This document shows, piece after piece, positions 758 through 31,015 of a stretch of DNA of 64,000 bases. A program made the position numbers and the translations under genes. Numbering within the stretch: position 1 is the first letter of the stretch; each line of letters opens with the position of its first letter. The stretch is taken from the IMG/VR virus record IMGVR_UViG_3300045988_049479, positions 117,652 to 181,651 of that record; one strand, written 5' to 3'. The notes under the pieces are model-generated. The model did not search any database, was not told the origin of the DNA, and saw nothing but the letters and a program-made list of their open reading frames with translations. The DNA is from a virus.

Positions 758-2032
758 TTATAATAATAAGTACCGTTCCCAAGTTTTTGAATTACCTAAG
801 GACAAACGTTCATTTGTATTCTATTCGGTTCTAACATAAGGTGTTACTTTAAAATTTATAGGAAATTTGTATCTAAGCAAAGAATAATGTAATTTCTTAT
901 TCTTGCTTTTAAAATAATAGGGTTTGTTGTTATACATAAAGTGCACTCTGAAATGGCTATGATAATCAACCACCTCTATGATATGAATATACTTATTATA
1001 AAACTTAGATATATTGACTTCCTTTCCATTCCAATTTGAGAACTTCAAACCAGTCAAAGTTTCTATCTTTTTCAACAAATTCTTAGAATCACAGAATTTC
1101 ATCCAGCTGAAATAAGATCTCATTCTTCTTTCCAATTCTTCTTTATCAATCTTATTTTGCTTATATAGATTTATAAGCCTAAACATTCTCATTTTTATAG
1201 ATTTTCTTAATAGAACGTGAGTGTGATAAAATTTGTAACCTACAAAATCTACTCCTCTACTTTCTACTGGAAATATCTAGTAGTTAGGTTTTAATTCTAA
1301 ATTAAGAACTTGTTTCAAATACAGTTTTATAGATACTAATACATTTCTCAAATAATTCTTGTCATTACCAAGAATCACAATATCGTCAGCATATCGAAAG
1401 TAGTACTTACATTTTAACTCCTCTTTTATCCAGTGGTCAAAATATGTCAGATATAAATTTGCAAAGAACTATGATAGATAGTTTCCAATAGGAACTCCTT
1501 TGGCTGAATATATTATTTCCTTCAATAGACTTAACAGTTTCTTATCCTTTATTTTCTTCTACAACATCTCATACAGGATGTCATGTGTTATAGATGGATA
1601 AAATTTTCTTATATCCATTTTTAGGCAGTATTTAGTTTCATCTGAGTATTTCTACAATACCTTGAATAAATCATACTCTACCTTATGAATCCCTCTGTTT
1701 CTTATAGAGGAATATGTCTAATCTATAAAAATACTGGTCCAGATAGGTTCCATAATATTCATTATAGCATGATGAGTGATTCTATCAGGGTAATATGGAA
1801 GTCTAAAGATTAATCTTTCTTTAGGCTCATATATTATAAATGTACTATATTCAGAAGTCTAATAGATTAGCTATTTTAATTTGTCTGATAATTCCTTATT
1901 TTCTTCTAATCTATTCTTATCATGCTACTTAATACCACATCGAATTGATTTATTTCTTCTAGCCTTATCATCAGCTAATTCGATGTTTTTCAAATCATAC
2001 ACTCGTTCGTGCAAATATCCTACACGTTTCAA
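758..2032 (-). CDS. DGR-type reverse transcriptase, amber-recoded (about 10 in-frame TAG); start codon uncertain (TTG at 2032 or GTG at 2002)
   Basis: Manual minus-strand translation in a single frame from the TAA at 2036-2038 down to the TAA at 758-760. It contains an RLIFRLPYYPDRITHHA stretch, GVPIGNYLS[TAG]FFANLYLTYFD, FRYADDIVILG (YxDD) and a VDFVGYKF thumb motif. Tracker ORF 821..1192 is its C-terminal fragment; it stops at an in-frame TAG at 821-823 and the frame reads on. Confidence 0.8.
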
Positions 2033-2173: not shown

Positions 2174-2271
2174 CTCGACATTGGAATTGGCATTGCTGAC
2201 GTCATTGTTAGAATTGAAATAGCTGAGACCTGCATTGCTGCCATTATTCGCGTTGCTGCCTACTAGCAGTT
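2174..2271 (-). repeat. DGR template repeat (TR), non-coding, rich in AAT/AAC codons in the VR frame (ANNGSNAGLSYFNSNNDVSNANSNVE)
   Basis: Aligns base-for-base without indels to 2373-2470 (offset 199) and to plus-strand 28831-28923. Of 25 mismatches against VR1, 23 fall where TR has A on the minus strand. In the VR frame the TR contains stop codons, so it is not coding. Confidence 0.85.
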
Positions 2272-2345: not shown

Positions 2346-3521
2346 TTAAGATACTCTATTTAGAGTCCTAAACCCGACATCGGAACCGGCAAGGCCGACG
2401 CCATAGTTAGAATAGAAACAGCCGAGACCCGCATCGCCGCCAAGCTTCGCGCAGCCGCCCACCCGCAGCGTGCGAAGCTCTGTAGAGGTAGCATTGCAAG
2501 AGTGGTAGTCACATATATAAGTTGTAGCTGAGGCTCCAGTACAAGAAGATGGTATAATCTCTGCTGTCTCTCCTAAGTCAAACTCTTTAATGTATCCATC
2601 TTGCGCTACCTCGTATCCTGCTATGGTCTTGCTGCCAATTACGTCAGTAAACTCTTCCTTGTTTGTGGTAGTATACACACTACTGATTTCATTTGCCGCA
2701 GTTCTTTGAATAACTACTCCATCTAGGTTTGTCCAAATATCTCCAAATGGATTATCAAAACCTCTCCATCTTGGAACTTTAAATGTCTTAGTCGCTACTG
2801 TATCTGTTTCGTTTGTTGCAGTACACTCTGGAATAACTAAATCTTTGATTCCAGTGAAGTTACCAATATCATTACAATAACCACATGGAGTAATAGGATA
2901 AGTTCCATTATATCCAGACCAACTTGTAGCAGAGTTACTCCAGTCTGTAACTCCAGGACCAAGTCCTCCTTGACGATAACCATCAGAAGTAAGTTCGGCA
3001 TTATAGGCAGCCTGGGAGTTAAAGTTAGCATATTCTATTACATAGTTCCAGTAGAATATCCATTTATAATATTCATAGCATAATAATTCAGAACCTGCAT
3101 TTGTAGCATAAGTTCTCATATTAGCTCTAGAAACATTAGTTCTAGGTTTTCCTAAATCGCTTCTAAAAGCATCTTTGGTATCAAGTTCAGTAGTTAGATA
3201 CTCATCGAATTGTGCTCTATTTCCACCACCTCTAAATGCTTCTGTAGTATTGACCACAGACACAGCTTTAGGGGTTGCTGACACAGTATTATCAACGGTA
3301 TTTCTATATGCGTCAATTAATAGTTCTGGTATTTCTACCCATGAATCATCAAGCTTTACTAGAGAAATTCTAACCCATCTTTTATTTCCATTAGAGCCTG
3401 ATTTACCATAAAATTTAGGAGTGTGGACTCTTACAGTTCCATCAGTTCCATCGAGCACAGAAGGAGTACTTCCATCTTCTTTGTAAGCCCAATCGTCCGG
3501 ATATAAATAGTAATTTACCAC
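2346..3521 (-). CDS. DGR target protein 1 (putative receptor-binding or tail-fibre protein with a C-terminal variable domain)
   Basis: Tracker ORF of 391 aa with a GTG start. It has no internal TAG although the flanking genes are TAG-rich. VR1 sits at its C-terminus. The frame stays open upstream through two TAGs to a TAA at 3729-3731, so the true start could be TTG at 3720-3722. Confidence 0.7.
   Translation of the reverse strand: MVNYYLYPDDWAYKEDGSTPSVLDGTDGTVRVHTPKFYGKSGSNGNKRWVRISLVKLDDSWVEIPELLIDAYRNTVDNTVSATPKAVSVVNTTEAFRGGGNRAQFDEYLTTELDTKDAFRSDLGKPRTNVSRANMRTYATNAGSELLCYEYYKWIFYWNYVIEYANFNSQAAYNAELTSDGYRQGGLGPGVTDWSNSATSWSGYNGTYPITPCGYCNDIGNFTGIKDLVIPECTATNETDTVATKTFKVPRWRGFDNPFGDIWTNLDGVVIQRTAANEISSVYTTTNKEEFTDVIGSKTIAGYEVAQDGYIKEFDLGETAEIIPSSCTGASATTYICDYHSCNATSTELRTLRVGGCAKLGGDAGLGCFYSNYGVGLAGSDVGFRTLNRVS
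2373..2470 (-). repeat. DGR variable repeat VR1 at the 3' end of the target gene; GC-rich; encodes ...RVGGCAKLGGDAGLGCFYSNYGVGLAGSDVGFR
   Basis: Differs from the TR almost only at TR adenines (A to G, T or C). The protein ends in a GFR motif typical of C-type-lectin-fold DGR targets. The TAA stop follows 27 nt downstream. Confidence 0.85.
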
Positions 3522-5192
3522 ACCGTTATTTGCTACACATCCTCTGTAAGCGGACTAAATAGGGAGGGATTTATGTAATAGTGGGTTTCCTATTCTAGTA
3601 AGGATAGGAGAAGATACGGTAATATCCCATTCTACTCCATAAGAGTATAAGTCTACGTTACTGCTTAACTCTGTGACTTGTTTGCTTAGACTCTATTGTT
3701 CTTTTTGTAATTCTTCCCAAGCAGTATTAAGAGCATTAAATTGTTCCTCTAACTTAGTACTAGTATCTGCCCACTATGCAGTCCCATCTTCAGAAAAGGT
3801 TAAAATCTATCCAAGTGCTCCTCCAGCAGGTATGTGTTTATTTCCAGAAGTAGTTGGGTGTACATAATTATTTGCATTATCTGCAATACCACTAAGTTTC
3901 TGTTTTTCAGTTTCTGTGTAATTAGCTTCAGAAAGTCCTTTTCCTAATTCTTTATCTACCTTACTTTCCAACTCCGTTTTAGTAGCTAAACCACTTATAT
4001 CCTAGTGTTCCTTTAAATAATTTTCATCATTCTATAACTAAGACACTTTAGTTGGAATGGCACTAGATTTTGCATATGTCTAATCTATAACATTTCCAGA
4101 GCCATCATAGGTAGCCTTTAAGTCATATACGGTTTCTCCAACCTTTATAGATTTGATAGCTGCCATATTATTGTATTATTAAAGTTTCTTCTTCTACATT
4201 ATGATCTATTCCTTCTATGGAGGCAGTTAAGTCTTCAACAGCTTTCTACAGTTCAGCCTTGGTAGCGTAGTTCTTTAATGTATCTGGGTCTATTCCAGAT
4301 CCTCCTATATTTCCTCCAACAACTTTTACTGGTTTTGCTGAGTTCTTAAACTACCCTTCAACCCAAATTGTTCCCATACTATTTAAAATATTAATTGTTC
4401 ATTTTCTCCATCTACCTGTACGTTACCAGAACCAGGCTATATTGCATCTATTTTCTTCTACAATTCGTCTACAGCAGCCTTTATTAATTCTTCCACCTCA
4501 GCTTTTGTATAGTAGCGTTCTGTCAGATATTCACTTCTGACATATCCTGTATCCTATATATCTTTTTCTCCATAAGTACAATAGTACGTATCGTTCTCTG
4601 TCTTATTATTTTCAACTAAGTCATCATAATCTGTTTGTGGAAGACATACCAATTTAGGAACCTCTTCTGTAAGAGCAACTTGCTTTCCAGATGCTAATAA
4701 TCTATTGTCTTCTGTAGTAAGTTTAACAGAACTTTCAATAGTCTGTTCAGTTGTTTCATCTTCTGAACTTTCTCCAGTTGTTCCCTATTGTACTTCTTTT
4801 TCGACAATTTTCTAAATAGTAATATCAGAAGTTTCTATAGAGGTTGATTTTAGAAGCTCTGTGCTAAATTCCTTAGAAGCGGCATCCTAATCTTCCTAAT
4901 ATTTCTTCTAGGTAACAAATATAAAATCGTCATCACCAGTTTCGGGAGAATCTCCTCTTAAACTTTCTTTTGTCACATACTCCTCTGCTATCTAATCGGA
5001 AAGGTCGGTTAATGACTATTGAGTGGCGTATGTAGATTGAGCATTTTCTTTTGTAAGAAACTTTTCATCTACCTACGAGCTAGTGTAGTATGCTTTAATA
5101 TCTTCTGTAGTAACGTAGCTTCCTAGTTTCTATAAACCAGAAACAATTTCATCAATCTATGTCTTTGAGTAATAATTAGTAGCAACCCAGGA

Positions 5193-6251
5193 CTAATACT
5201 GATGTGTAGTATGGTAATTTTGATCTAAGTACTCCTTAGTAATATAGACTTTAGCATCATTTGTTACATCATACACATAGTAATATGTGTCAGGTTCTAT
5301 AGCCTCATCTTCTACCAGTTTTAAATATTCCTCTTCAGTTAATGTAACCAGATTAGGAACATCTGACATCATGGCGAATTGGTCTTCTCCAACAAACAAT
5401 CCATCAGATTTAACATCTACTACTAGCTAATCCTTCCCTTCTACTACTGGAGACTTTATCTATCCTACAGTAATACTTTCTAGGGAACCATCTCCATCTA
5501 CCTTTAAAGTCTTATCTAGCTCATCTTGAATAGCCTATTGGTCTTCGTCATACTATTTCTTTGTAACAAAGACAAAATCATCTCCTTCCATTCCTTCTCC
5601 TCTAAGACTTTCTTTGGTAACAAATATGTCATCAGTTTCTTCCTTAGTATAATGGTTAGATAAGGCTTTAGATAACAAGGATTCTGGGTCCTCTAAATCT
5701 AGATCAGTTTTAGGGGCATAATTCTCAGTTAACTCTTCAAGAGTAGCATACTTGGAAAGGTTAGAGATTGTCTAGTCTAAATCCGTTCTAATCTGTACGA
5801 CAGTAGTATTTAGAGCTTTCTATTTCAACTATTCCTCTATCTTTTTACCCCATTCTGCTGATAAATAAAACTAATCATCATCTAGGCTGTCTTCATATAT
5901 ATAATAATATGTTTCTGCATGAAGATATGTTTTATTTTCGTCTATAGGTTTAAAATCTTCTGTGGTATTTTCAGACCATTCCTTATATTCAGCCTCTGTA
6001 CAGGTGATTATCTAAATAGATTCATAAGAAGCTTTCCAACCTTCTTTGTATTTAATCTTAGACTTATCTACTAGCATATAAATATTTCCGTTATCTATAT
6101 TTGAAACGGTCATGCCTTGATAAGCATATTTCTCCGGAATAGAATATAATTCGTCTAAATTATCGACTACTGTTCTATTATCAAGAGGTTTAGGAGTTTC
6201 TACGGTTAAAGCAACGCCTAATGTAGCATCACCTGTATATTTAAATGCCAT
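5193..6251 (-). CDS. Amber-recoded acidic structural protein; ATG at 6249-6251 overlaps the upstream stop as TAATG; 3' end not determined (frame continues below 5193 through TAG)
   Basis: Manual translation from 6251 down through tracker ORFs 6012..6251 and 5193..5399 stays in one frame, interrupted only by TAG (for example 6012, 5871, 5829, 5820, 5772, 5694, 5553, 5535, 5517, 5466, 5460, 5427, 5193). Confidence 0.5.
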
Positions 6252-7840: not shown

Positions 7841-10800
7841 TATGATTCAATAATTGCTATTTAATAAATTCGTGATTATCTAATTTTACGGGTAGGTTAA
7901 TAAAACAAATTAGATTCAAAATATCCTAATAATCTGGTCTATATCCCTTTCTAACCCTTTTAAGGAAATCCTCATACCTTTTAATAGCCTTTCTTTTAAG
8001 AGCATCCACAACCTATACGTTTATGTTCATGGTGATTGTTACAGAATCCACCGCAAGTACGGAACATTGCTAACAATCTTTCAGCTTCCATGAATTGTTT
8101 AAAGCCTATTAAATAATCTATAATGTTAAGTGTCATCCAGATAAAATCTCTTGCAAATATATCTGCATCATGTTCTCTAGTTAGACACTTATTTAATAAA
8201 GAGTCAAAGAGTTTCTTACAGTAGTTAATATAACACTATTGCAGATTTCCTGTAAAGAATACATCTACCTTACATTTTTTGATAGTAGTTCCTTCTATAT
8301 TTCTCTCAAGGATTTCTTTTACAGTACATTCCTCTAGCTCTCCATCTACTTCTTTATATAGTTTCTCTCCATCAGTTATATAGATAGTTTCATAATACTC
8401 CTTGTATTCATCAGATGAATTTTCATACCATTTCATATTAGGAAGAATTATGTGGTCTACTACATAATATCCATCTTCTTTCACCTTAAATGTACAAGAG
8501 TCTAAATCCTCTGTATGGTCATTGAGAAGTACGTCTATCAAAGTAGCATCTCCTATACTAACTTTTATGATAGTATTTAGGGTAGCACTTTCACTATACT
8601 TATAAGAATCATAGGAAGTTACTACCTCTAAATCTTCATCAATATACTATCCATATTCCTTTGAAAAGTCTTCAATAGTTATTTCCCCGTTAATCTGGGT
8701 ATGTATATCAATACTAAATTCCATATTATAATAATTAAGACTCAGTAGTAGGCCATTGACCATATTGAGCAGGAGTAGAAAATGGTTTCCACTTACCTTC
8801 TTGTCGTATACGTCTAGACATAAAAACTGAACTAAATGATAAACTAATATCTTGAGGATAGTCTGTCCATGTATATGACTAACCTTCAGGAGTCGGTGGT
8901 AGACTATTTAATTTACCAGCTGGTTTCCCATTCCAATAATAATTATAGTCATATGCCTTAGTTGGAGTAACAGTCGTTGTTTCATGTCCTTCTGAATCTA
9001 CATATAGAGGATTTCCATCCTCATCTGTTTTCTGCTTATACTCAATAACTGGAGTTATTCCCTCAGTTCTAGTGTATATATTCTAGATAATAGTAGAAAC
9101 ATCGCTTGCCACAATCTCATAAATAGTAGTTCCCTGAGATTCGTCAGCTCCCTAGAAAGTAAATTTAGTTCTTTTCCAGATGTATGGATTCTCTTCAGTT
9201 GGAAGTTCAAAAGTATCAGTCCACTATTTAGTAGATAATTTTATCTCAGATTCTTCAGCAGTATCAGCAGGTAAGTAATGAATCTTAATAATAATATTAT
9301 TTACCGCTTCACTAGAACCAGAAAGATCTGACACCTATTTAAATAGTTTCTTTAAATCTTCTTCCACATTTGATTTGGAACCAGAAGCATTACTAATAAT
9401 TACTGAACCATCTGAAATAGGATAAATCTATTGCTAATCCTTATTATATACAATTGTTCCAGTTGCCATATTAATGTATTTGTCTTATTTTGTCATTATA
9501 TGGATTTCCATCATGAAGCTAAGCTAACTCTATTTCAGTTCTCTTTTCTTCTATATCCATTTGTCTATCTTTATATGTAGAATCAGATTGAGCTTTGAGC
9601 CAGTTAACTTTATATTCTAACTACATTTTCTGCTACTCTAATCCTAATCTCTATTCATCCAAACTTTCTATCTTCTACTAAGCTTTCTATAGTTCTTGCT
9701 GTAACTGCTGTGCCTATTGTGAAGTTTCTTCCAGTTTTTCCTATAGCTGCTATAGCTAATTGTTTTCTTCTTTACGAATCTATACTGCTTTCTTAACCTT
9801 ATATTTAAGGTCTGTAAGACTCTTAGCAGTTAGTGCTTCAAATATGATGTCAGGATCCATTTGCTGACTTTTAACAAACTCTGGAATAATGGCTTTAATA
9901 GTTTGTAAATCTTCCATTACTTCAGAGCTAGAAGTTATATGGATGTCATAATCAGTAACCGTAAAATATTCTGGAAGTGCTGTAAATATCTGCTAGTATT
10001 TATCTCCAAGTATAATAGTACCAGTCAATCCTTTCTTATATGTTATTTTAGCCTAGTTTAGACTATCCAATAATATCTCACAAGTGATTAGGTCCATCTA
10101 CTAGAAATAATGCTTGGTTACTATGTAAGAGTTAGTAACACCTTGCTTAATATTAGTTACAGCATCGTGAGTTTCTATTCCATTTAATCTTTCTCTAAAT
10201 ACTCCAGTTATAGATGATGTAGTTTGTTCTACTGATTGAATTGCTAATTCAATAGCCTATACAGCCTAAGCTTTTAAGGTATCATCAAATCCATTGTATA
10301 TCTAGTTAGGTGCTTGCGCTCCGTCATTTCTCTCTTCCTAAGTAGAATCAATCCACATGATACCACCCTTCTTGTATGCTAACCATTTCTACACTCTTTC
10401 TGGCCATTTTACGCCTAGGTTAGTAGGAAGCAATGACATATCCATGATTACTCCAGCAGTACCGCTGTTAGCTATCAGGTTATCCCTATAATAATTTAAC
10501 AAGTCATATCTATCCTGTAGATGTGCACACTTTAATATCAGAGAGTACGGTTGTTGAGAACGATTTAAGAAATATACCCCATTCACAGACAAAGAGCAGA
10601 AATTAGGATTATCTTTTGACCTCATAACAGTCTTGTCTAGACCTCTCAGAATATATATTTCTTCTCCAATTCTAATGGTATTGTATCTCTACATTACAAA
10701 ATCGTCATCAGTTTCTATCCACTCTACATCATAAACAGGAATTAACTAAAATCTATGAGCACTATATTCATTATCTGGATATCCAGGAATAGTTTCATGA

Positions 10801-11839
10801 TTCTAGTCTTCGTTTACTATAGTACAAGTGTCACCATAAACTCTTCTATAAACTGCAGCTGAATCATCGGCTCTCCATTCATCTTTTAGTCTTTTCAGAT
10901 CTTCTCTAGAGATTTCTTTTCCGTATTTAGCTAATATCTAGCTTTTACTCATCCATTTTCTAACTACTACTCTATACGAATTTCTAACATATGGAGATTC
11001 TGGATTCCTATCTACGAAAGTATTTAAAGGATTCAGAACTTCTATTTCTATGTTAGTTCCAGAAGATGATGATTTTACTCTGAAAAATGTATAGCCAGTA
11101 ATTAATAAATCTGTAAGTAACTATCGGAGTTTAGTTATTAAATCGGTTTCTCTAGACTGCATAATATAATGAATAATATTCTATGCAGCTATCTCATATT
11201 GAGAAATAAAAGACTAATCAATGTCTTGAATAATTTTATCTAACTAAGTCTTCACGGCTTTATCTGTAATATCTTTTCCGTCGATAAATTTCAGAATAGA
11301 ATTACTTAAATGGTCTCTAAGAAATTTAACTATTCCTTTAGTTATTTCTAACTATTTTTCTCTGGTGATATTACTAATGGTATCTGAATCCTTACAAGAA
11401 ATCTTCGGAAGGATAGGGGTTCCTAGATATTCCCCTACTAGAGCATCTACGTGCTTTTTTAGTAATGGTGTAAATTCTACAGAAGTAGGACTACCTATTC
11501 CAAAGTTTTCTTCCAGGTAACGAAACTATTCTGGGTCTCTCTTTCCGTTATAGTAATTATAGGCTTTCTATAATTCGTACTTATCATATACAAGCTCCGC
11601 AATAGCCTCGTTCGTCTTGTCTATCAGTTCTTTTTCTTTCATAACATAAATTATGCTGTTCTGGAGGAAGTTTAGTTGCATTATAGTATTTAACTCTTTG
11701 TAACTTCCTACTTCTTAATTCTTCCTTTATAAATGGGAGAAATTCTTCATCAGGTAAATCAGCTATAATGACTAAAGGCATCTCTGACCTATCAAAGTTA
11801 AACGATACCTTATAACCAACTGGATCTAGGTTCTGAATT

Positions 11840-14200
11840 TCAAGCCCACCTACGTATTCCATTTTGTACAAGTCTCTCATATAACCTAGGATCACTTGTT
11901 TCAATTCTGTATGGGTCATCGTATTCATTTTTTTGTATGTTAGTTTCAAAAGTCTTAGAAGTTGGTATAACCCCAAATCTTTTGATTCCTCTCTCGTCGT
12001 AATAATAACCATAATCTTGGAATTGTTCAACTTCTTTTTCAACAAGCACTGGCTATCTTCCTGACAATTCCTAGTCTGCCAATTCTGTCATTCCCACAGC
12101 TGCTACAATATCGAATTTACCTTTATTCTCATCATTATATCCAGTAAATTGGTCTAACATTTCTTCAAACCATATAGTATGACAGAAATCCTCAATAAAG
12201 GCTGCTGTCAAATCAGTATGTTGTTCTATAATAGTTTTGGTAGCGGGTGTTCCGTACTATTTAGTAGTTCCATTCTTGACGTCTGTTAGAGTAGCTCTAG
12301 GTCTTTTCATAAAGTAGTTTAAACAACCCTTTTCTCTAGCCCAGGTAATCATACCTACACGGGTAGCTTCTATGTTTATTCTACAATTATAGTATCTAGC
12401 TAAACACATAGCTATTTTATAGGCTTCTCTAATGTCATTAGGTCTGTCTTTATACATAGCAACATACTACGGTTCGTTTAGACCAAATGCTCTTCTTTTT
12501 ATAGTTATACAGAAATCAGAAGGATCTCTTGTTTCTTTTGAAGTTTGACTAGCTCCTATATCAATACCGTCTATTCCTGCAACATATAAATCATGCATTT
12601 CTTTGTACGCTGGAGATTCAAATTCTTCTCCCCTTTCCTCGGCTTCCTATCTAAGTTTATCCATCTACTCTTTATACAAATCAGACCATACAGGATGTTC
12701 AAGTATTTTTACTTTTCCGTTAATATTAGGAATCCATTTAAAACCATCTATATTATCCTAGGTGTGTTTATTATTTTTATAGAAATAGTCTATGTATCCA
12801 GATTCTGGTCTTGGTCCTATTTTCTTAAGTCTTATATTAGCTAACTGGTCCGCAATAAGAATCTTGTTGAACTTGTTAACACCTTCAAGATTAAATGCTT
12901 CTTCTGCATTCCAACATCGTTCAGCACACTTCTTTAGATAGTCATCTGGAACTGCTAATAAATTGTCGCGCTCTTCCTATAGATACTTCTTATATTCTAC
13001 TGTATTACATACACCTCTATGGTCCATGTATTCTGAATTTAGAGACTAGACAAAATATGGAATGAAGAACCCACTTTCAATAGTAGTCCCATCCTGGGTA
13101 TAATTATGTCTAAATGGAAGAACTTTGTAAGCTTTTGGATTATAATATATCTTCTTAAGACCTGCTAATGGAGCGCCCATATCACCACCAGTACCTCCAA
13201 ATAACATTGTTCCACGAGGTTTACCTTGAACTTCACAAAGCTCTTGTCCCTACACTACAGCAGTATCTAGTCCAGGCCAAGATCCTGCTTCATCATATAT
13301 TAATAAGTCAACACGGTCTCCACGAATATTAGATGCCTTAGCTCCGTTTATTCCAACTACTTCCGATTTAAATCCAACATCCTCAAACTGTCCGTTTACC
13401 TTAATCTGTTTACCGGACTTCTTTCTTAAGTCTTGGTCAATCAAACGTAGTTTGAAGAATCCTCCTCCTGTACAAGTATTCAAGAATGTTAAAGCATTAT
13501 CAAACTTACTAAAAGTACCTTTAAGGAAGGTATCATTAAAACAGGTAATCATTACTCTGCTTCTTCTGATTACTGAATACATTCTTGCAGATAAGGATGC
13601 ATTTATTTCAGAGAATCCAATAGAACGAGCTTTCATAAGAGCTGCGTGTTTATGCAGAACTCTAGCCATCTATAGATAATGAAAGAACATATAATGAGAT
13701 GCGAAAAATATAGGAAAGTCACTACTTGTTCCTTCTCCAGATGCCTTGTTATCATCAATAATAGGAAGCTAGTAGAAGTTTAGGAAGAAATAGTTATCTC
13801 CAGTAATTGTATAACCATTAACAGTCATTCCATATTTACATCTTCTATACTATTCCTTCCAAAACTCATTATATCTCTTACTATCTTTTAGATATGGACA
13901 ATACTTTCCAGTTTTTCTATATACTTCTCTGGTCTCAGTAAACCAATCTGGGTCGAAATCAAGACCATGTGTTTCATCTATTGGTCTATATCCAGTTATT
14001 TCATAAGATAAAGTAGGGTCAAATACCTCTATCTTATCTCCTCTTTTTACATCCCAATAATCAGCATTTTTGCCTCTTTCCTCTCTTATCTTCTATACTA
14101 GTTCTCTAGCTTCTTTGGCATCCTCTTTTTGTTCTTTCTCTCTTACCTAATCTACTATATTCTAGATTTCTTCAGGTAATATTTTTTTCTTTCTAGGCAT
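11840..14200 (-). CDS. terL: Terminase large subunit-like protein, amber-recoded (about 16 in-frame TAG)
   Basis: Tracker ORFs 13250..13669, 12257..12457 and 11840..12049 are all in the same frame (start mod 3 = 1). I checked 12050-13250 triplet by triplet and found only TAG, no TAA or TGA. An ATG at 14198-14200 begins MPRKKK... A Walker-B-like VDLLIYDEAGSWPG and a C-terminal nuclease-like segment are present. The gene ends on TGA at 11840. Confidence 0.5.
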
Positions 14201-15582
14201 AATTAAAAGTCTCCTGGGTCAAAGCCGTCTGTAGCTCCACCTCTTACAGTAGATTGTTCTGTAAGCTCTTTCTTAACCTGCTCTTCTAGTGTTACTAATT
14301 CTTCATGAACTTTATGAAGAGTAGCCATTTCTTTCATTACCTTTTCAGCTTGAAAGACGGGTTTGCCATTATTATCACGTTCATTTAAATCTACTATAGT
14401 ATCAAAATAATCAATAAACTAGTCAGCTGCTCTTTTAGCTGCTTCTAGAAGTTTTATTGATTTGTTAGAATCCTACAATGCTCGGTATTTTCTACAGGCT
14501 TCCCTGAATAACGGGTCATTAAATTCGGATTCAGATAGTCCAGAGTCACTAATAGCTTCATCATGTCTTTCATGTTCTGAATATTGGCTATAGGGACTCT
14601 TCCAATCAATAGCTAGATAAATGTAAGATAATTCTCTAGTTACTCGTTCCTTGTCAACAGATTTATCTCTCTGTATCAAAGCCTTAAACTCTTTAACTAG
14701 AAGAAGCTCTGGTTCATTTATTTCTAACTATTTAGTTAAAGTGTTATAATTAAATACATTCATACTCATCAATCATTAACATTAACATCTTTAATCTTTT
14801 TATTTCATTTTAGAACCGCATTTACTTACTTTCATTTTAGAACCACAAGCATCTTTCTTAGCATACTTTGTTCTATCTGGAACCCATTTTCCATTTTTAA
14901 AGTTTCCCTTGTGTCCTCTATTTGCCATGACCTCCTAGTCATTATATTTATTAATAGATACAGAATCTCTGGATGCTTCATCCTTTGCAGATTTCATATC
15001 CTTTTTATACTAAGCTCTTCCAGCCTTGAACTTGTCAACTTCATTAGCTTTCTTAGTAACCTTAGTTCCTTTCTATGCTTTTTGGCAAGCTTTGCAGATT
15101 CTTCCTCCCTGTTTAAAATAAACAAGTTCCTCTCCTTCTGGGCATACTCCTTTTAATTTTTTATAGTATTCTAGTTTAGCTCCAAGTCTAGCCATAACTC
15201 CGCCTTGCATCTTCTACATAAATTCTTGATACTTGGCTTTGATTCCATCTTCTCCAAGCTACTCAGCGTAAGCCTATAAATCTTGCTCTGATTGTAGTTG
15301 TATCCCTTGTGCTTGGGCATCTTGTATCAAGTATGCCATGAATGCTTTCTGTAATTCTTCCTAATTAGCCATTACTCTTCTACTTTAATTAAATCCTTTG
15401 TATTAAATACTGCTTCCTGCATTAATCCAGAATCAGTAAACCATCTACATCTTAGTCCTCGTAATCCTTGGTTATCTTTAAATAAAGCTGCTTCTCTTCT
15501 TAGAACAAGCATAACTGGAGAGTGCATTACTTTACACTACCGTAAAGTAACACAATCCCCAGGCTTAAAATAAACTTTTTCA

Positions 15583-16185
15583 TCAATTGTTTCCATGCTT
15601 CAATTCGTCTCTTCTTTCAGTTAGTTTCTCATTAACTACAGCCATGATTCTATTCTCATTAACTACTACAAATCCTAGTTTATAGAATGGAACCATACAT
15701 TCACTAGCTATTGTATAAAATACAATATCTCCAGGCTTCAAGAACTCACACTTATGTCCTACTTCTATCACAGTTCCTACCTTAATAAATTGTTGCTCTT
15801 CTTCAATTTCTCCAGTCTCATTAGATTTATAAGTAGGAGTAAATCCACCTAAATCAGTAATAAGACCGCTTTTAGTAGTTTTTATTTTTTGGAATGGGTT
15901 TTGTTCAAAGGGTTTAATTAATGCATACCCATACATCGGCATAATTTCAACTCCATTCATATCGTTAGATAATGATTTAGCGTAATCCTCTAGTGCCTGA
16001 TTATGTTTAGAGAATTTATCTTCTAACTCATCTACTGCGGTATTAAACTTCTCTTGTTTTTCTCTTAATAATGTTTGGTCTGCAGCCTCTCCATTTAAAA
16101 TAAAATGTTCTCCCGTACCTTCCATTCCAGTTAATGATAGTGCTAGTTTTTCGTTACTGTTTAATTCTGTTCTTAAAGTTTCCAT
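15583..16185 (-). CDS. Protein with C-terminal GroES/cpn10-like domain (standard code, no TAG)
   Basis: Tracker ORF of 200 aa. The C-terminal half reads ...ALIKPFE...KTTKSGLI...VGTVIEVG...KPGDIVFY...AVV, which resembles the cpn10 fold pattern. Confidence 0.4.
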   Translation of the reverse strand: METLRTELNSNEKLALSLTGMEGTGEHFILNGEAADQTLLREKQEKFNTAVDELEDKFSKHNQALEDYAKSLSNDMNGVEIMPMYGYALIKPFEQNPFQKIKTTKSGLITDLGGFTPTYKSNETGEIEEEQQFIKVGTVIEVGHKCEFLKPGDIVFYTIASECMVPFYKLGFVVVNENRIMAVVNEKLTERRDELKHGNN

Positions 16186-16193
16186 AATTCATT

Positions 16194-16577
16194 TTACCAT
16201 TTACATAAATCACAATGTTCATCTTCAATTCTTGTTTTATTCTCTAATATACAACCACATTCATCGCACACTTCCCCAACAGATGTTTGTAATTTATGGG
16301 AACAAGCGTCACAAATTTTTAATCTTTTGGTTGTCAAATCTTGATTTATTCCGAATATATTGAAATATATACTTTTCAATATTGTTAAAGGTTTAATAAA
16401 TATTGCTTTAATCCATTTCCATATCATATCTTCTTCCTCCTTCTCGTTTATATTTTGGACAGTAAGTATATAATGCTTATCTGGTTTATATAATATAGGA
16501 GTTCCATAGATTACCATTTCCCTGCTGGGCAATGTTTCTTTTCGTTTGGAATCTTCTTCTCTAGTAAACATCCACAT
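16194..16577 (-). CDS. Cys-rich zinc-ribbon protein (paralog A)
   Basis: Tracker ORF. C-terminus reads ICDACSHKLQTSVGEVCDECGCILENKTRIEDEHCDLCKW. Confidence 0.4.
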   Translation of the reverse strand: MWMFTREEDSKRKETLPSREMVIYGTPILYKPDKHYILTVQNINEKEEEDMIWKWIKAIFIKPLTILKSIYFNIFGINQDLTTKRLKICDACSHKLQTSVGEVCDECGCILENKTRIEDEHCDLCKW

Positions 16578-16726
16578 CCCTTTATATACCCTTCTTTAGG
16601 GCTTATACTTATATCATTATTCTTTGGATTTAGATACAAATGCCCATTACATAATCCATTATCTTGGTCACATATTGGACAGCGTCTACATATCTCAAAT
16701 CTTTCTTCTATTTCCTCTAGTGTCAT
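16511..16726 (-). CDS. Cys-rich zinc-ribbon protein (paralog B); overlaps paralog A by 67 nt in another frame
   Basis: Tracker ORF. C-terminus ICRRCPICDQDNGLCNGH...GCGCLLEKKIPNEKKHCPAGKW is homologous to the paralog A C-terminus. Confidence 0.4.
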   Translation of the reverse strand: MTLEEIEERFEICRRCPICDQDNGLCNGHLYLNPKNNDISISPKEGYIKGCGCLLEKKIPNEKKHCPAGKW

Positions 16727-16728
16727 AA

Positions 16729-17643
16729 TTAATATTCAATACGTTGACGTTTTCTTTTATTTTCTGCCAATATAGATTCCTTCTTATAGAAGGCTAGCAT
16801 TTTTATAACCTCATCTTTTAGATATGGCAAATGATATACTGTCATATTGTCATTATGGTCGAAATGTACCAAAACCAAATCCTCTATTTCAAACTCTGGA
16901 TTTTTCTTTTGAATCATCCAAGCATAAGTACTTAATTGTAAAGTATAGTGCCAGTAATTAACATCATCTAAATTATTTAGAGGATATTTCATCTTAACAG
17001 AAGTTTTGGTTTTAGAATTGAAGAAACTCTTAGTTTCTATTTTCTTATTGGTCTTCCAGTCTCCTATAATTATCTTATTTCCTCTTTTAACTAATAAGTC
17101 AATCTGTCCTGCTATTCTTAGCTTTCCATCATCCGATACTCTAGATATTAAATACTCAGGATATACACCATTCTCTAAGTCTAATTCATTGTGGTCTTTT
17201 ATACACTCGAACTTGCCACCTATTTGATATTTACTAAGGTCTATGTTCTGTTTCTTTTTATAGAAAGAGTTTTCCAAATCTGCATGGATTTTAGTTCCCC
17301 TCTCGCATGAGTTTCTATTCTCTAAATCCCAAGCATCTAAGATAGCTTGTTGCTCTTTATTAAACTCGTCTTCTGTAATGTTATGAAGTTCAAGTAGAAC
17401 TTTATCAAATTTCTTAGTGTTCAACAAAGACTTTTTTTCTATAGCCCAATCTTCTTTAGGTAAGAGTTTCTCTAGTGCTTTATATGCTGACCAGAACTCC
17501 TTATCAAATGGTTGGGTGAAAGAATGAATTAAAGTCGTTACAGATATAAACTTCTGTTCTGGCTTTGTAACATCATAATAAATATGAGCTTCTTCCTCAA
17601 AAGCTATGTTCCCATTTTGTTTTGTAATTTTACTTTTGTCCAT
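16729..17643 (-). CDS. PD-(D/E)XK family nuclease-like protein (standard code)
   Basis: Tracker ORF of 304 aa. The stretch GQIDLLVKRGNKIIIGDWKT fits a D...(D/E)xK nuclease core. Confidence 0.45.
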   Translation of the reverse strand: MDKSKITKQNGNIAFEEEAHIYYDVTKPEQKFISVTTLIHSFTQPFDKEFWSAYKALEKLLPKEDWAIEKKSLLNTKKFDKVLLELHNITEDEFNKEQQAILDAWDLENRNSCERGTKIHADLENSFYKKKQNIDLSKYQIGGKFECIKDHNELDLENGVYPEYLISRVSDDGKLRIAGQIDLLVKRGNKIIIGDWKTNKKIETKSFFNSKTKTSVKMKYPLNNLDDVNYWHYTLQLSTYAWMIQKKNPEFEIEDLVLVHFDHNDNMTVYHLPYLKDEVIKMLAFYKKESILAENKRKRQRIEY

Positions 17644-17757
17644 TAGTCATAATTCATTTAATCATTTATCACATTTATCTATATTTATTTGATACTTTTC
17701 AAGTATATTAATATTCTTTGTAAGATACAAATCAATAAATAATACATTATATTAAAA

Positions 17758-18099
17758 ATGTCTAACAGTAAGAAAATTACAACATTTGGGTGTCCAATTT
17801 TCAAAAATGGGTCGGGCATTCACATTAAAGAGAAGAACAGAGGCAAATTTACAGCATCTGCCAAGGCAGCAGGAGAATCTGTACAAGAACACGCTAAGCA
17901 TGTACTAAACAATCCTAACGCTACCCCTCTTTAGAAGAAGCGAGCTAATTTTGCTAGAAATGCTTCTAAATGGAAACACGAAGATGGGGCTAAGATACAT
18001 AAACCGAGTGGACATAGGTCTATTCTAGATAATGGATGGATTCCTACTACTAGATTAAAGAAGGGAACTTATGGATTTATTAAAACTAAGAAACGATGA
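17758..18099 (+). CDS. Small very basic protein (113 codons) with one in-frame TAG (17932-17934); plus-strand gene embedded in the leftward module
   Basis: Codon-by-codon manual translation from ATG 17758 to TGA 18097-18099. The tracker missed it because the TAG splits it into fragments under 60 aa. Confidence 0.45.
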
Positions 18100-18173
18100 A
18101 AAACATTATTAAGTGCATTAAAGAGATTGTATTAAGAATATATCTATATTTACTATTTATATTTAAAAAGTAA

Positions 18174-18308
18174 CATGGACTATAACAAAGCAACTTTACA
18201 CGCGGCAACAGGTCGTACTCTCTTACTTCCTGGATGGAGAGGATATTTTTATTGGGATTATTCTAAAAAGGAATTGAATTTCAGAAACGGAGATTATCAT
18301 TTAGATAA
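18174..18308 (+). CDS. Tiny ORF (44 aa) ending TAA TAA
   Basis: Manual translation; no other support. Confidence 0.2.
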
Positions 18309-18605
18309 TAAATAGCTTAGAGAAAAGGGAGTCATGGAGAGAACTGATTGGTACTATATTATATAACAAAATAGGCGAGCCTAGAGATTAGGTTCGCCTA
18401 TTTTTATTTAACATTATACTTTGTATCATAAGTACAAGTGATTCTATTTATACCATCCTCCCACCAAGGTTTATCTGATGGCTATCTAATACCACTTGGG
18501 ATGGTTATTGTAGGAGTAGAAGTTTCTACTATAGCATCTACTATTTTAAATAATGTATCCAAGTCAAATTCTGGAAATTCATTATGTAAGTTTGTCAATG
18601 TCTTT

Positions 18606-18842
18606 TTAAAGTCTATCATATCCCTCAAATGTATTATCAATTATTGCTTTTTCTAGTGTAGTGTCTTTATATAGTCCATTTTTAATTAGATTTCTAACTG
18701 AATTGTCAACTACATTCCATATATCAATCAGTAATGATTTATTCTCCGGAACACTTCTAAGTGTACTTTCTAAATATCCGGCTTTTATCATATTTATTAG
18801 TTGACCGTTAATAAAGACTTCAAATTTAAATTCTTTATCCAT
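18606..18842 (-). CDS. Hypothetical protein
   Basis: Tracker ORF of 78 aa. Confidence 0.35.
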   Translation of the reverse strand: MDKEFKFEVFINGQLINMIKAGYLESTLRSVPENKSLLIDIWNVVDNSVRNLIKNGLYKDTTLEKAIIDNTFEGYDRL

Positions 18843-19010
18843 ATATTTTAGTATATTACACTTAGTCTATTTAATTCATCTAGGTAATCTAGAAACCATT
18901 GTTCATTTTGTTTTCCTTCTTCTGCAACAATCTCAATTAAAGATTCTGCTGCTAGGAGTATAGTTTCAGATAACTCTTTTAAATTTGGCTTAGTTAGTTC
19001 ATTGTATTTA

Positions 19011-19325
19011 TCAGTCAAGTTTAACATAATCCATCCAGTCTTTTATATATGATTTACATTCCTCTAAATCTGGATAGATACTTGCTATAGTGCAACCTGT
19101 TTTTGGATTCCTAAAATGATGGAGTTTTGCTTCCTCATTTTTCTCCTCTTCTATATTTCTATTTAATGTTCTATTCCAGTAGTTGTATTTCTCATCTAGC
19201 ATTTCCTTATCACACTCCTCCAATATTTTCATATTGGGATTACTCATTATTTTGTCATACTTTCTTTTTAAATTAGAAACTTTGACAACATCATTACCAT
19301 TCAATACGACTGCACACTGTTTCAT
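19011..19325 (-). CDS. Hypothetical protein
   Basis: Tracker ORF of 104 aa. Confidence 0.4.
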   Translation of the reverse strand: MKQCAVVLNGNDVVKVSNLKRKYDKIMSNPNMKILEECDKEMLDEKYNYWNRTLNRNIEEEKNEEAKLHHFRNPKTGCTIASIYPDLEECKSYIKDWMDYVKLD

Positions 19326-19549
19326 TTCACTACTTTATAAGTACATATCTTACCTATCTGCTTTCCTTGAATACTTATTTGTGGAAGAAAGTAGCAGGCT
19401 TGATTCTCAAATTCTTGAGGTACAAATATGTAATCAAATCTACATCCAACTACCTTATCGCAAACTTTATTCCAATCATCTCCCTCTTCAATAATAAGGG
19501 TCTTAGCTCCTGTTGGAGTTACAGCATAATTCTCATTTAAATTTATCAT
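19322..19549 (-). CDS. Hypothetical small protein (start trimmed to the MINLNENY... methionine)
   Basis: The N-terminal 25 residues of tracker ORF 19322..19624 are a read-through of the tRNA gene. The first internal Met is taken as the start. Confidence 0.35.
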   Translation of the reverse strand: MINLNENYAVTPTGAKTLIIEEGDDWNKVCDKVVGCRFDYIFVPQEFENQACYFLPQISIQGKQIGKICTYKVVK

Positions 19550-19566
19550 AACTATTAATTTTGGCG

Positions 19567-19638
19567 TTGCCCTACTAGGATTCGAACCCAGACTAAATGA
19601 TTTAGAGTCATCTGTGCTGACCATTACACCATAGGGCA
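19567..19638 (-). tRNA. Amber suppressor tRNA-Gln(CUA)
   Basis: Minus-strand sequence tgcccta-tg-gtgtaatggtcagcac-a-gatga-CTCTAAA-tcatt-tagt-ctgggttcgaatcctag-tagggca-a. The 7 bp acceptor is perfect, the D and T arms are canonical, and the anticodon stem carries one G.U pair. Loop CTCTAAA gives anticodon CTA. The D-arm, variable loop and T-arm nearly match tRNA-Gln(TTG) at 34204-34275. Confidence 0.85.
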
Positions 19639-27416: not shown

Positions 27417-28378
27417 CACATTTTAATTAATTAGATTATGACAAAAGAAGAAGCAATTAGAGCTATGTCTGAAGGAAAGAAAGTAAGGCATAGATACTTT
27501 AGTAAAGACGAATGGGTAACTATAAATTCCAGCGGACTATATGAGTTCGAGGATGGTGTAAAAGTTGATTCATCGTTATTTTGGATGGACAGACAGGATT
27601 CCTACTGGAATGATGGATGGAGCTTAGTTTAACTTTAAATAAGAATAAAATGACAACGTATGAGTACGGAAAAGGATACTTGCCAGAAATCTGGTACTAG
27701 TGTAATATTCCAAAAAGAAATTACGCAGTGTAGGGAATGTCCTCATTGTAGAATCGCTCCTGACCCAGACCCTGATGACTGGTTCAATGACGATGATGAA
27801 AAAGCGCTTTGTAAAGAAGCAGGTAATAAACTAATTGAGGGAATGTTAAGACCTTACGAAAGGGTATTAATTCCGGATTGGTGTCCATTAAAAACTAATA
27901 AACAAAAATGAATAGAATTAAGACAAAAGCCTATCTTGAGGTAACTTTAGAGCAGGCACGCGAATGGTATGAAAGCGGTAATGAAGACTTGAAGAAATTA
28001 GCTCTTACTGCATTTAGTGAGGAAATGCTAATTCCTTCCTTTAAAGAGATAGTAGAGTCTGAAGAAGATTATGGTTTTTGGAATACATTAGTATGTCCTC
28101 CAAGCATGACAGAACAACTCAGTTCTCTAGCTAGTTTACAAATAGTTGCTAACTATCTAAATAAAGGATGGATCAAAACAGAAGGTAATACTGGCTATTT
28201 TCTTGGAAAAGGTTCTTCTCTGTCTGGAAAGACGGAAACTGATATAAAAGGAGTGTACGTCGCCATGCATCAAGATGTAAAGTATCCAGGTGTTGTTTAT
28301 TTCAGAACTGTAGCTGATGCACAGAAAGCAGTAAAGATTCTTGGTAAAAAGTTATTGCCATTACTTAAATAATTTGAT

Positions 28379-28452
28379 GGTGTTATTAGTTCAGTTGGCA
28401 GAACGCTACATTGTGGCTGTAGAGGTCAGCGGTTCGAGTCCGCTATAACACC
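28379..28452 (+). tRNA. tRNA-His(GTG) with G-1
   Basis: Anticodon arm ctaca-TTGTGGC-tgtag; acceptor gtgttat/ataacac with an extra 5' G. Confidence 0.75.
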
Positions 28453-28482
28453 CTAATCATGTTTTATTAAATATTATAACGA

Positions 28483-29043
28483 ATGAAAAAGACAATTGAA
28501 ATTGAATGTCCAGATGGTTATAAACCCATCTATAATGCCGAAACTGGCAATGTTGAAATCGTTCCAGAAAACATTATGGGACGGATAAGAACCTATGAGG
28601 ATGCTGTAAACTATCTAGGGTGTGTTACTAGAGATACTATTTACTATAATAGATCTGTAAATTCTCTAGCTAAGTTGCAGACAGTCTTGGATGCGCTAAA
28701 TGAAGGTCACAAGTTCAATCTGTTAACTGGTACTATATGGTATCCCTGGGTTCGCTTCTTTAGAATGAAATCAGTTCCGAAGGATGCAGAGGTCATTGGT
28801 CACTTCCGTTATCAGGGCGAGAAATTCGCGTTGGTGGGCGGCTACGCGGATCTTGGCGGCGGTGCGGGTCTCGGCTATTTCTTTTCTCACCTTGGCGTCG
28901 GCGATGCCGATTCCGGTGTCGGGATGCTAGCGTGCAAATCTGAAGAAATTGCAAAATATGTGTCAACTCAGTTTGGAAAGCTAGTGTTTGATGCTTGTTT
29001 TGCAAGACATTTTGAAGGTAGAGAATTTGAATGGCTTGACTAA
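28483..29043 (+). CDS. DGR target protein 2 (remote, opposite strand from the RT/TR); carries VR2 about 40 codons before its C-terminus
   Basis: Tracker ORF of 186 aa. The stretch ALVGGYADLGGGAGLGYFFSHLGVGDADSGVGM is encoded by the GC-rich 28831-28923. Confidence 0.7.
   Translation: MKKTIEIECPDGYKPIYNAETGNVEIVPENIMGRIRTYEDAVNYLGCVTRDTIYYNRSVNSLAKLQTVLDALNEGHKFNLLTGTIWYPWVRFFRMKSVPKDAEVIGHFRYQGEKFALVGGYADLGGGAGLGYFFSHLGVGDADSGVGMLACKSEEIAKYVSTQFGKLVFDACFARHFEGREFEWLD
28831..28923 (+). repeat. DGR variable repeat VR2
   Basis: A 31-codon gap-free alignment to the TR and VR1. Every mismatch against the TR inside the repeat falls at a TR adenine; one c-to-t lies at the 5' edge. Confidence 0.8.
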
Positions 29044-29522
29044 TGAAAAAGTTCCTTGTATTTATGCTTGCTATGCTCTGGATGAGCGTAGCAGCTTTTT
29101 CTCAGATAACTATATCACAAGAAGACTATGATAAGTTGCCAAGCGATACTAGAACTCAAATTGAGAAGATAACAACAGAGAAAGCTATAAAGGGTGAAAT
29201 CAAAGAAGTATCTGAATATGCAAGTCTCGGAAAAGAGATTGGAGTTGCAGTAAATGAGACACTAAAGGCAGTTGAAGATTCGGCTATAAGAATATCTGAA
29301 TCTAATCTAGGACAAACAGCGATAACTATTGTAGTATGGAAATTACTATATAAGGAGATAGCTGGAGTCGTAATAGGTATACTACTGTTAGGAATATCTC
29401 TATTTTTACTAATAACTGGAAGAGGAAAACTATCTAAAGACGATGAAGATGCTGGCGGATGGATAAGTGTAGTCGGTGGCGCAGTATTCTTTATTTCTTC
29501 TATGATTTGTGTATTTGGCTGA
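29043..29522 (+). CDS. Membrane protein (signal peptide plus C-terminal transmembrane helices)
   Basis: Tracker ORF of 159 aa. N-terminus MKKFLVFMLAMLWMSVAAFS. Its start overlaps the stop of target 2. Confidence 0.45.
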   Translation: MKKFLVFMLAMLWMSVAAFSQITISQEDYDKLPSDTRTQIEKITTEKAIKGEIKEVSEYASLGKEIGVAVNETLKAVEDSAIRISESNLGQTAITIVVWKLLYKEIAGVVIGILLLGISLFLLITGRGKLSKDDEDAGGWISVVGGAVFFISSMICVFG

Positions 29523-30272: not shown

Positions 30273-30491
30273 ATGAAGAGAATTAGATTAATTTGTATGA
30301 TGGCTGTTGTAGCAATAGTTACGGCAGTCTGTTGTTCGTTTACTTCTAGGGAAGACCGAAATCATTTTTCGGTTGAAAAGGTATATACCGACCCTAATAG
30401 TCACATGAATGTCTATAGAGTTTCCGTTCCTGGGAGAGTGTATTACGTACTTCATAATACGACTCAAGGAGGGTTATGTAAATTACTATGA
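30273..30491 (+). CDS. Small lipoprotein-like protein
   Basis: Tracker ORF of 72 aa with a signal peptide and a Cys after it. Confidence 0.3.
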   Translation: MKRIRLICMMAVVAIVTAVCCSFTSREDRNHFSVEKVYTDPNSHMNVYRVSVPGRVYYVLHNTTQGGLCKLL

Positions 30492-31015
30492 GCGAAACTT
30501 ATTATCTCTTAGCAGCCATTTCGTATGGCATTTTTATTGTTCAGTTCATACTCTCTTGGTTTGGTGGCGACACTGACTTAGATGTAGATTTAGATGGAGA
30601 ATTGGACATGGATGTGAGTGATATTGTCTCTTTTAAAGGACTAGTACATTTTGTAATGGGAGCAAGTGGATGGCTTTGTATTAAGCATTCCGTTTCTCAT
30701 TCTATAGAATGGTACGATTATTTAATCGCACTAATATGCGGTATTCTTTTTGTGGTTATACTTTACTACTTATATAAACTTTGTTTAAAACTCCAACATC
30801 AAGTTATTCCTGAAAAGGGTGAAGCCTTAATCGGGAGAATTGGAACAATCACTATTCCTAATGATATTTCTGGTGGTAGTTCTGTTATCTTAGTTGAGAT
30901 AAATGGAATGCTTCAAGAATTGTCAGCTTATGCTGAAGAAGAGCATAAGACGTATAAAAACGGGGACAAAGTGAGAATTTCAAAATTTGAGAATGGAAAG
31001 TATTATTTTAACTAA
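30488..31015 (+). CDS. NfeD-like membrane protein (flotillin partner, C-terminal OB-fold)
   Basis: Tracker ORF of 175 aa. N-terminal transmembrane helices are followed by GEALIGRIGTITIPNDISGGSSVILVEINGMLQELSAYAEEE...GDKVRISKF. It sits directly upstream of the flotillin gene. Confidence 0.55.
   Translation: MSETYYLLAAISYGIFIVQFILSWFGGDTDLDVDLDGELDMDVSDIVSFKGLVHFVMGASGWLCIKHSVSHSIEWYDYLIALICGILFVVILYYLYKLCLKLQHQVIPEKGEALIGRIGTITIPNDISGGSSVILVEINGMLQELSAYAEEEHKTYKNGDKVRISKFENGKYYFN

Follow-up and report, generated by a model that had tools for sequence, protein, structure and literature searches.

Evidence for a second, remote target of a diversity-generating retroelement on the opposite strand of an amber-recoded crAss-like phage genome

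Results

The 64,000-nucleotide stretch analysed here (hereafter the window) is taken from the IMG/VR virus record IMGVR_UViG_3300045988_049479, where it spans positions 117,652 to 181,651. Near its left end the minus strand carries a diversity-generating retroelement (DGR), made up of a reverse transcriptase (RT) gene, an intergenic template repeat (TR) and a tail-fibre-like gene with a variable repeat (VR1) at its C-terminus (Table 1). A second variable repeat (VR2) lies on the plus strand, inside a gene whose 186-aa product falls into phrog_11581, a phage family that has no name. A sequence-only reading of the window had proposed this gene as a remote DGR target, and the open reading frame (ORF) that it named is present and intact. 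Taken together, the results below make us highly confident that VR2 is a genuine and currently active second target of the one DGR of this large gut phage.

An unbiased search for repeats across the window recovered the two variable repeats as an inverted repeat (2373-2463 / 28833-28923) of 91 nt with 86% complementarity, and a scan of the first 6 kb returned TR and VR1 as a direct repeat (2172-2269 / 2371-2468). The copy at 2264-2174 lies between genes and is rich in adenine, with 30 among its 91 nt, which identifies it as the template repeat. VR1 sits 199 nt upstream of it, and the spacing between TR and VR2, on opposite strands, was computed as 26,569 nt, in agreement with the distance of about 26 kb proposed earlier. 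When TR, VR1 and VR2 were aligned three-way without gaps, each on its coding strand, TR and VR2 differed at 24 positions and every one of them was a TR adenine, so that 24 of the 30 adenines had changed and none of the 61 other positions (hypergeometric P about 1e-16). The claim that all VR2 differences fall at TR adenines is thereby borne out, and the same alignment reproduced the VR2 peptide given earlier, ALVGGYADLGGGAGLGYFFSHLGVGDADSGVGM. The span of VR2 had been drawn as 28831-28923; its end was placed correctly, but the repeat begins at 28833. VR1 differs from TR at 23 positions, 22 of them adenines, and the two variable repeats of the window genome differ from each other at 13.

VR2 has a GC content of 66%, compared with 38% for the rest of its gene and 36% for the window. 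The antisense ORF at 28793-29005, which is present with the Arg/His-rich translation quoted in the sequence-only reading, is spurious and arises because VR2 is so GC-rich within a gene of 38% GC. The adenine codons that are freely rewritten in VR2 (ten AAY and one TAT) allow about 2e12 protein variants, and the theoretical ceiling, with all adenine-containing codons counted, is 1.9e16 peptides.

Table 1. Position and properties of the DGR components, the remote target and its neighbours in the window
Feature	Position	Strand	Remarks
DGR reverse transcriptase	821..2032	-	RVT_1 1.8e-18; 8 in-frame TAG; ORF may read through to 758
TR, template repeat	2174..2264	-	Intergenic, between tail-fibre gene and RT gene; 30 adenines; homology extends over 2172-2269
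VR1, variable repeat at C-terminus of tail-fibre gene	2373..2463	-	
Tail-fibre-like protein, target gene 1	2346..4166	-	606 aa with TAG as sense; 8 in-frame TAG; phrog_5302 tail protein, E 1.4e-67
Suppressor tRNA, anticodon CTA	19566..19638	-	ARAGORN label 'tRNA-Pyl'; inverted repeat, 74% to tRNA-Gln 34204-34276
154-aa ORF	27908..28372	+	Upstream of VR2 gene; without VR; conserved synteny
tRNA-His(GTG)	28380..28453	+	Directly upstream of VR2 gene; conserved neighbour, outside DGR
Target gene 2, 186-aa protein	28483..29043	+	Unnamed phage family phrog_11581, E 1.4e-14; no in-frame TAG
VR2, variable repeat of remote DGR target	28833..28923	+	91 nt; codes residues 117-147 of 186-aa protein
159-aa ORF	29043..29522	+	Downstream; start overlaps VR2 gene stop (TAATG); conserved neighbour

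The strongest evidence for ongoing diversification comes from related genomes. Public viral contigs yielded 36 full-length homologues of the 186-aa protein, most of them on contigs of 95-190 kb. The 17 closest are virtually identical to the window outside the VR, yet their VR peptides are entirely different. Among these 18 near-identical sequences (the window and its 17 closest homologues), the TR-adenine columns of VR2 had an entropy of 1.24 bits with 26 of 30 columns variable, against 0.005 bits and 1 of 61 for the non-adenine columns and 0.011 bits for the part of the gene upstream of VR2. The sequence-only reading would have been undermined by an invariant VR2 across relatives, and this variation rejects such invariance. 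With a 27-nt probe, the TR was retrieved from 30 related contigs, at least 22 of which carry it in identical form. When VR2 was compared with the TR of the same genome across relatives, 527 mismatches fell at adenines and 14 elsewhere, and at least 11 of those 14 trace to two contigs with mis-assembled or indel-bearing TRs. In these two, IMGVR_UViG_3300045988_056908 and IMGVR_UViG_3300045988_058617, an indel or VR-like bases occur in the TR, and the contigs look chimeric across the repeats.

VR1 behaves in the same way, with 457 adenine and 12 non-adenine mismatches to TR across 21 genomes. Mean entropy at adenine sites is 1.27 bits for VR2 and 1.25 bits for VR1, and the per-site profiles of the two repeats are correlated (Spearman 0.76), which fits one TR feeding both. 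These data bear on the possibility that VR2 is the decayed remnant of an earlier target and is no longer rewritten; inactive TR-VR pairs with non-adenine changes are reported for some zeta crAss-like phages (PMC12386605). A relic with mismatches at 0 of 61 non-adenine positions, a diversity equal to that of VR1 and completely different VR2 sequences in genomes about 100% identical elsewhere is very improbable.

An origin of the repeat by chance from Gly-rich coding, by mis-assembly of VR1 reads or by VR1-VR2 gene conversion without reverse transcription was considered as well, since the VR is both GC-rich and Gly-rich and hypervariable repeats disturb assemblies, as the two contigs with chimeric or indel-bearing TRs illustrate. 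The TR pattern with every A replaced by N, however, has exactly three matches in the window (TR, VR1 and VR2) and had none in 100 shuffles. With no match expected in shuffled sequence, the chance Gly-rich similarity that the earlier reading had itself put forward as a way to be wrong can be rejected. The flanks of VR2 are unique, in frame and syntenic across 36 independent contigs, and the 13 differences between VR1 and VR2 of one genome also speak against an artefact. A search with the 186-aa protein returned 830 clusters at 90% identity, a splitting to be expected if the segment is hypervariable. Gene conversion, for its part, cannot yield adenine-specific novelty relative to an invariant TR, and an artefactual origin of any of these kinds is scarcely credible. 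Relic, chance similarity, mis-assembly and gene conversion were all rejected.

The adenines are not all treated alike. Where a TR adenine precedes G, both VRs nearly always have G in its place throughout the relatives (e.g. 33/34); in VR2 these are positions 28833, 28836, 28840, 28858, 28866, 28873, 28900 and 28922, and in VR1 they are the same TR positions. Adenines of AAY and TAT codons, unlike those in the AG context, are randomised to all four bases. The AG-context set includes three synonymous third-codon sites (CTA>CTG, GTA>GTG and GCA>GCG), for which selection at the protein level is ruled out as the cause. A context-dependent bias of the RT or a constraint at the DNA level is possible. 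The pattern recurs with the different TR of a second clade described below, as CAG>CGG and AGC>GGC.

The cassette itself depends on recoding of the amber codon. With TAG as sense, ORFs of 100 aa or more cover 0.89 of the minus-strand block (1-19500) instead of 0.27, whereas in the plus-strand block that contains VR2 (20001-64000) their coverage rises only from 0.68 to 0.73; recoding is confined to the minus-strand virion/DGR block, and the standard code applies in the plus-strand block. The RT motifs, a DGR-type IGNYLSQ and a YADD box at 1393-1382, appear only when TAG is read as Gln, and the Gln of IGNYLSQ is coded by TAG itself (1471-1469). Read with Gln at these codons, the RT appears intact and functional. 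The closest GenBank relatives of the RT are those of crAss-like phages, at 57% identity. The tail-fibre gene had been read as an ORF of 391 aa; with its in-frame TAG codons taken as sense it is considerably longer (Table 1). The likeness of the CTA tRNA to tRNA-Gln suggests that TAG is read as Gln. Judging from the sequence, the RT and the tail fibre would be translatable only once TAG is sense, which would require the CTA tRNA, and the VR2 gene would be free of that need. As many as 26 of the 28 predicted tRNA genes of the window lie on the plus strand at 25908-51772 among small non-structural ORFs, and together they cover most amino acids; for one of the 28 the anticodon could not be assigned.

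Scans of the 186-aa protein and its family alignments against Pfam and NCBIfam gave no match, and neither did a PDB sequence search with the protein or a tblastn search of GenBank phages; a search of GenBank phage DNA with the VR2 locus returned tRNA matches only. No signal peptide or transmembrane segment was seen by eye. An exhaustive search among 50%-identity representatives placed the family at 221 clusters, most of 150-220 aa, with a common scaffold that runs from a variable N-terminus through an 'IKTFEDAC' helix, a 'KL..I..ALN.GW' helix and 'KYYPW' to a VR-like segment ('GG.A..G..AGLG.F.S...VG...A..G') and a C-terminal helix ('KS.EIA.Y...QF..L', also K/S-x-E-I-A-x-Y...QF). The window protein is a long form with an extra beta-hairpin ahead of the VR. 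When the tail fibre was compared with the VR2 protein family, only the 35-aa VR segment aligned (hhalign residues 352-386 vs 116-150), and a whole domain common to both proteins was rejected on this ground.

From a diverse family alignment, AlphaFold2 gave a confident model, with a predicted local distance difference test (pLDDT) score of 89 and a predicted template modelling (pTM) score of 0.82; a shallow alignment of close homologues had given a pLDDT of 49, which was unusable. Foldseek comparison of the model with the PDB returned nothing at E<=1e-3, C-type lectin folds included, and a fold search of BFVD matched only uncharacterised phage proteins. DGR variable proteins elsewhere have the C-type lectin fold (PMC8144416). 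Since the VR loops of the model are uncertain, the missing match among solved structures may be taken as no more than a lead toward a DGR scaffold that is not of the C-type lectin kind.

Viral contigs were also searched with two distant family members, and each locus found was scanned for adenine-specific repeat pairs. At 17 or more loci, canonical DGR cassettes act locally on short family members of 120-180 aa; as a rule, one to three tandem target genes precede the TR and the RT. These cassettes occupy presumptive early regions. The DGR-targeted relatives at two of these loci, L119 and L142, match phrog_11581 at E 1e-21 to 1e-29. The L119 cassette is placed after a Mu-like transposase and a transposition protein, and the L142 cassette is flanked by ParB and, at its opposite end, by a RecE-like exonuclease, a replisome organizer and a DnaC-type loader. 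In Bacteroides phage Versailles (ON453897.1 10181-10762) a family member lies between NinB and a replisome organizer. Genome matches fall in Bacteroidota (Flavobacterium, Prolixibacteraceae and Sphingobacterium). The family is a broad, phage-specific one and a recurrent DGR substrate.

The layout of the window is repeated in two further phage groups. The genome of Bacteroides phage LoVEphage (MW660583.1) was reassembled from three segments for the TR/VR scan, which found a TR at 49383-49500, VR1 in a tail collar fibre gene and VR2 at 34004-34116, on the opposite strand and about 15 kb off, within a family member at 33613-34197 annotated as 'hypothetical protein'. All 19 mismatches between this VR2 and its TR are at TR adenines, and the neighbours of the gene are methyltransferases, radical-SAM proteins, tRNA-His and RtcB. 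A second clade, of about 175-kb phages, carries a family protein 32% identical to that of the window and its own, different TR, with VR1 369 nt upstream of TR and a remote VR2 in the homologue; the core mismatches are adenine-only. In this clade, then, the pairing of tail fibre and phrog_11581 was kept while TR and both VRs co-evolved.

Around the VR2 gene, the order 154-aa ORF, tRNA-His, VR2 gene and membrane ORF is kept in more than 30 relatives, and the tRNA-His that had been named as a neighbour is found in its expected place (Table 1). One subgroup of the VR2 family has an N-terminal module similar to the N-terminus of the 154-aa ORF, 'LEQAREWYESGNEDLKKLALTAF' (hhalign probability 88%, residues 7-89). 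With its VR-bearing half missing, this ORF may be a VR-less relative of the target family, although the similarity is limited to the N-terminal motif. The downstream 159-aa ORF has a signal-like N-terminal segment and hydrophobic C-terminal segments.

An NfeD/flotillin pair had also been assigned to this neighbourhood. Its flotillin half stands, as an SPFH/Band 7 protein at 31031-32989 (2e-17), but NfeD at 30488-31015 reached only a sub-threshold match (E 0.065). The SPFH/Band 7 (flotillin-like) protein is 652 aa long and contains long Ala/Glu/Lys-rich internal repeats (family D3, 31898-32315), and the gene ahead of it at 30488-31015 encodes a membrane protein. Elsewhere in the plus-strand block, 55427-56443 codes for a phage-encoded OmpA-like protein with outer-membrane beta-barrel and OmpA C-terminal domains, both at about 1e-10, and 58321-59871 for a nicotinamide/nicotinate phosphoribosyltransferase (NAPRTase 3.8e-32 and NAMPT_N), followed at 60264-61073 by a weak, sub-threshold PRTase-CE match. 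Phage NAD+ salvage genes can counter host defences that deplete NAD, and the phosphoribosyltransferase gene would fit counter-defence content in the plus-strand block.

Discussion

In the established DGR mechanism, as known from Bordetella phage BPP-1, the RNA of the template repeat is reverse-transcribed with misincorporation at adenines; the parts of that system are Mtd, bRT, Avd and the initiation of mutagenic homing (IMH) element, and AAY codons are the main ones diversified. The phage in our window resembles BPP-1 in that an invariant TR presumably supplies its VRs by adenine-specific mutagenic retrohoming, and in the fact that AAY codons are mainly diversified. By analogy, the intergenic TR (2264-2174, minus strand) would be transcribed and copied by the adjacent RT into a cDNA with misincorporations opposite adenines, and this cDNA would replace two homologous 91-nt tracts in trans, VR1 in the tail fibre and VR2 in the 186-aa gene. 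The VR2 gene would belong to another temporal module than TR and RT, to judge from the recoding split and from homologues that sit among replication and recombination genes.

Distal DGR targets have been described before. Phage-associated DGRs were reported to have many non-adjacent targets within 50 kb of the RT, which were taken to belong to the same prophage (Wu et al. 2018, PMC5758913). Those cases are alike to ours in their adenine-only TR/VR mismatches at a site apart from the RT, but positions were catalogued without definition of a target family, and crAss-like phages lie outside the description. A survey of 30,000 DGRs was by design unable to detect remote targets (PMC8144416). The closest precedent is the DGR of Quimbyvirus ('Quimbyviridae'), with one structural target and one distal, presumed non-structural target (Benler et al. 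2021, PMC8008677), the latter near DNA-modification and repair genes (PMC8008677). Quimbyvirus and the window phage alike keep RT and TR next to a tail-fibre target, and in both a further VR lies away from the structural module, on the other strand. In LoVEphage, as in the window, the two-target layout is seen directly and the remote target is from phrog_11581; the published description of the Quimbyvirus target matches that of LoVEphage, and we infer that it probably belongs to the same family. It was called a C-type lectin domain protein (PMC8008677), an assignment that fold searches with the window protein did not reproduce. The phages themselves are very different, a zeta-crAss-like podophage of roughly 185-190 kb in our case and a temperate phage of roughly 71 kb in the Quimbyvirus/LoVEphage type. 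The TR-VR2 distance is 26.6 kb in the window compared with about 15 kb in LoVEphage, and in the window, unlike that type, RT and tail fibre are amber-recoded and the remote target is not.

The assignment to zeta crAss-like phages rests on the published description (PMC12386605), which the window phage fits in size (185-190 kb), in its 28 predicted tRNA genes and in amber suppression. In the same account, the DGRs of these phages have an RT with in-frame amber codons and a GxxxSQ motif, a tail-fibre target with a C-terminal VR, and a position in a reverse-oriented virion block with the tRNA block oppositely oriented, all as in the window. It differs in that its accessible part covers tail-fibre targets only, with two phages that have additional TR-VR pairs; no remote target placed in the replication/tRNA block figures there (PMC12386605).

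What the VR2 protein does is less clear than how it is diversified. We tentatively favour, at somewhat less than even chances, a non-virion protein that acts as an intracellular variable binder, possibly with a role in counter-defence or host takeover. It would be made independently of the suppressor tRNA, and its ligand would be some variable molecule of the host or of a competitor. This reading is preferred because the gene sits in a standard-code, tRNA-rich block and its relatives lie among replication, recombination and DNA-modification genes. The same observations reduce the weight of the main alternative, in which VR2 is equally active but the protein is a virion component, an auxiliary receptor-binding protein or tail decoration, so that both targets serve adsorption. 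That alternative draws on the VR module common to the tail fibre and the VR2 protein, on the 'tail protein' label of the Versailles homologue and on the fact that most described phage DGR targets are tail proteins (PMC8144416). However, the homology to the tail fibre is limited to the 35-aa VR, the label is an automated one, in four or more unrelated phage groups the family members lie in regions for replication, recombination or DNA modification, and the VR2 gene sits in the non-recoded block. We consider a virion role possible but rather unlikely.

Several observations nevertheless count against our account of VR2 as an active target that encodes an intracellular protein. Unlike BPP-1, the window phage has two targets, one remote and probably non-structural, and lacks Avd as well as a recognisable IMH and hairpin. 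A search for an Avd-like accessory gene found none; the gap between VR1 and RT leaves no room for one, and Pfam has no match for the 121-aa ORF that follows the RT. The absence of Avd is also reported for most zeta crAss-like DGRs (PMC12386605). The GC-rich, IMH-like element 3' of each VR that the sequence-only reading had suggested looking for was not found beside VR1 or VR2. Only insignificant stems of 3-5 bp (z about -1.9) were seen 3' of either repeat, and the 3' flanks of VR1 and VR2 have no sequence in common; the sole consistent TR/VR difference at the 3' end is a G in the VR against an A in the TR at 28922. The VR segment is the weakest part of the structural model (pLDDT 61-73), and the fold predicted for the remote target did not match the Mtd-type C-type lectin folds. 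The Versailles family member is annotated 'tail protein' in GenBank, a label that comes from automated HHpred-versus-PHROGs annotation and may be right or may derive from the VR module common to the family and tail fibres. Finally, the terms 'early' and 'non-structural' as applied to the VR2 gene have genome position as their sole basis.

A broader, and doubtful, extension of the intracellular-binder reading is that phrog_11581 is a dedicated scaffold for DGR-diversified binders, made early in infection by unrelated lineages and directed against fast-evolving molecules of the host or of rival phages, such as defence proteins. The fold of such a scaffold may be distinct from the C-type lectin, and the binder would come from a standard-code block while its diversifier needs the suppressor tRNA. 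If this were true, a variant generated late during one infection would be put to the test in the early phase of the following one.

The layout of one structural and one distal target was already known from one other gut phage group, and the window is in this respect a solid new example and not a new principle. Three points appear to be new relative to the published accounts consulted: a remote DGR target in zeta crAss-like phages, as far as the accessible part of their description goes; the recurrence of phrog_11581 as a non-tail DGR target, remote or local, in at least four phage groups; and a diversifier that is recoded while its target keeps the standard code. In practical terms, surveys restricted to the RT neighbourhood or to the standard code miss such targets in recoded phages, and the cultured carriers of the family, BI-TP1, PV4-TP1 and Versailles, offer an experimental handle.

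The customary explanation of phage DGRs is that they broaden host range by varying the tail fibre. Here a single unnamed family unites three kinds of target: the remote one of a zeta-crAss-like phage, the remote one of the Quimbyvirus/LoVEphage type, and those that occur locally and in tandem in small temperate phages of Bacteroidota. That an additional target outside the structural module is kept by selection, and turns up repeatedly in unrelated phage lineages, suggests that targeted hypermutation has a further use during infection.

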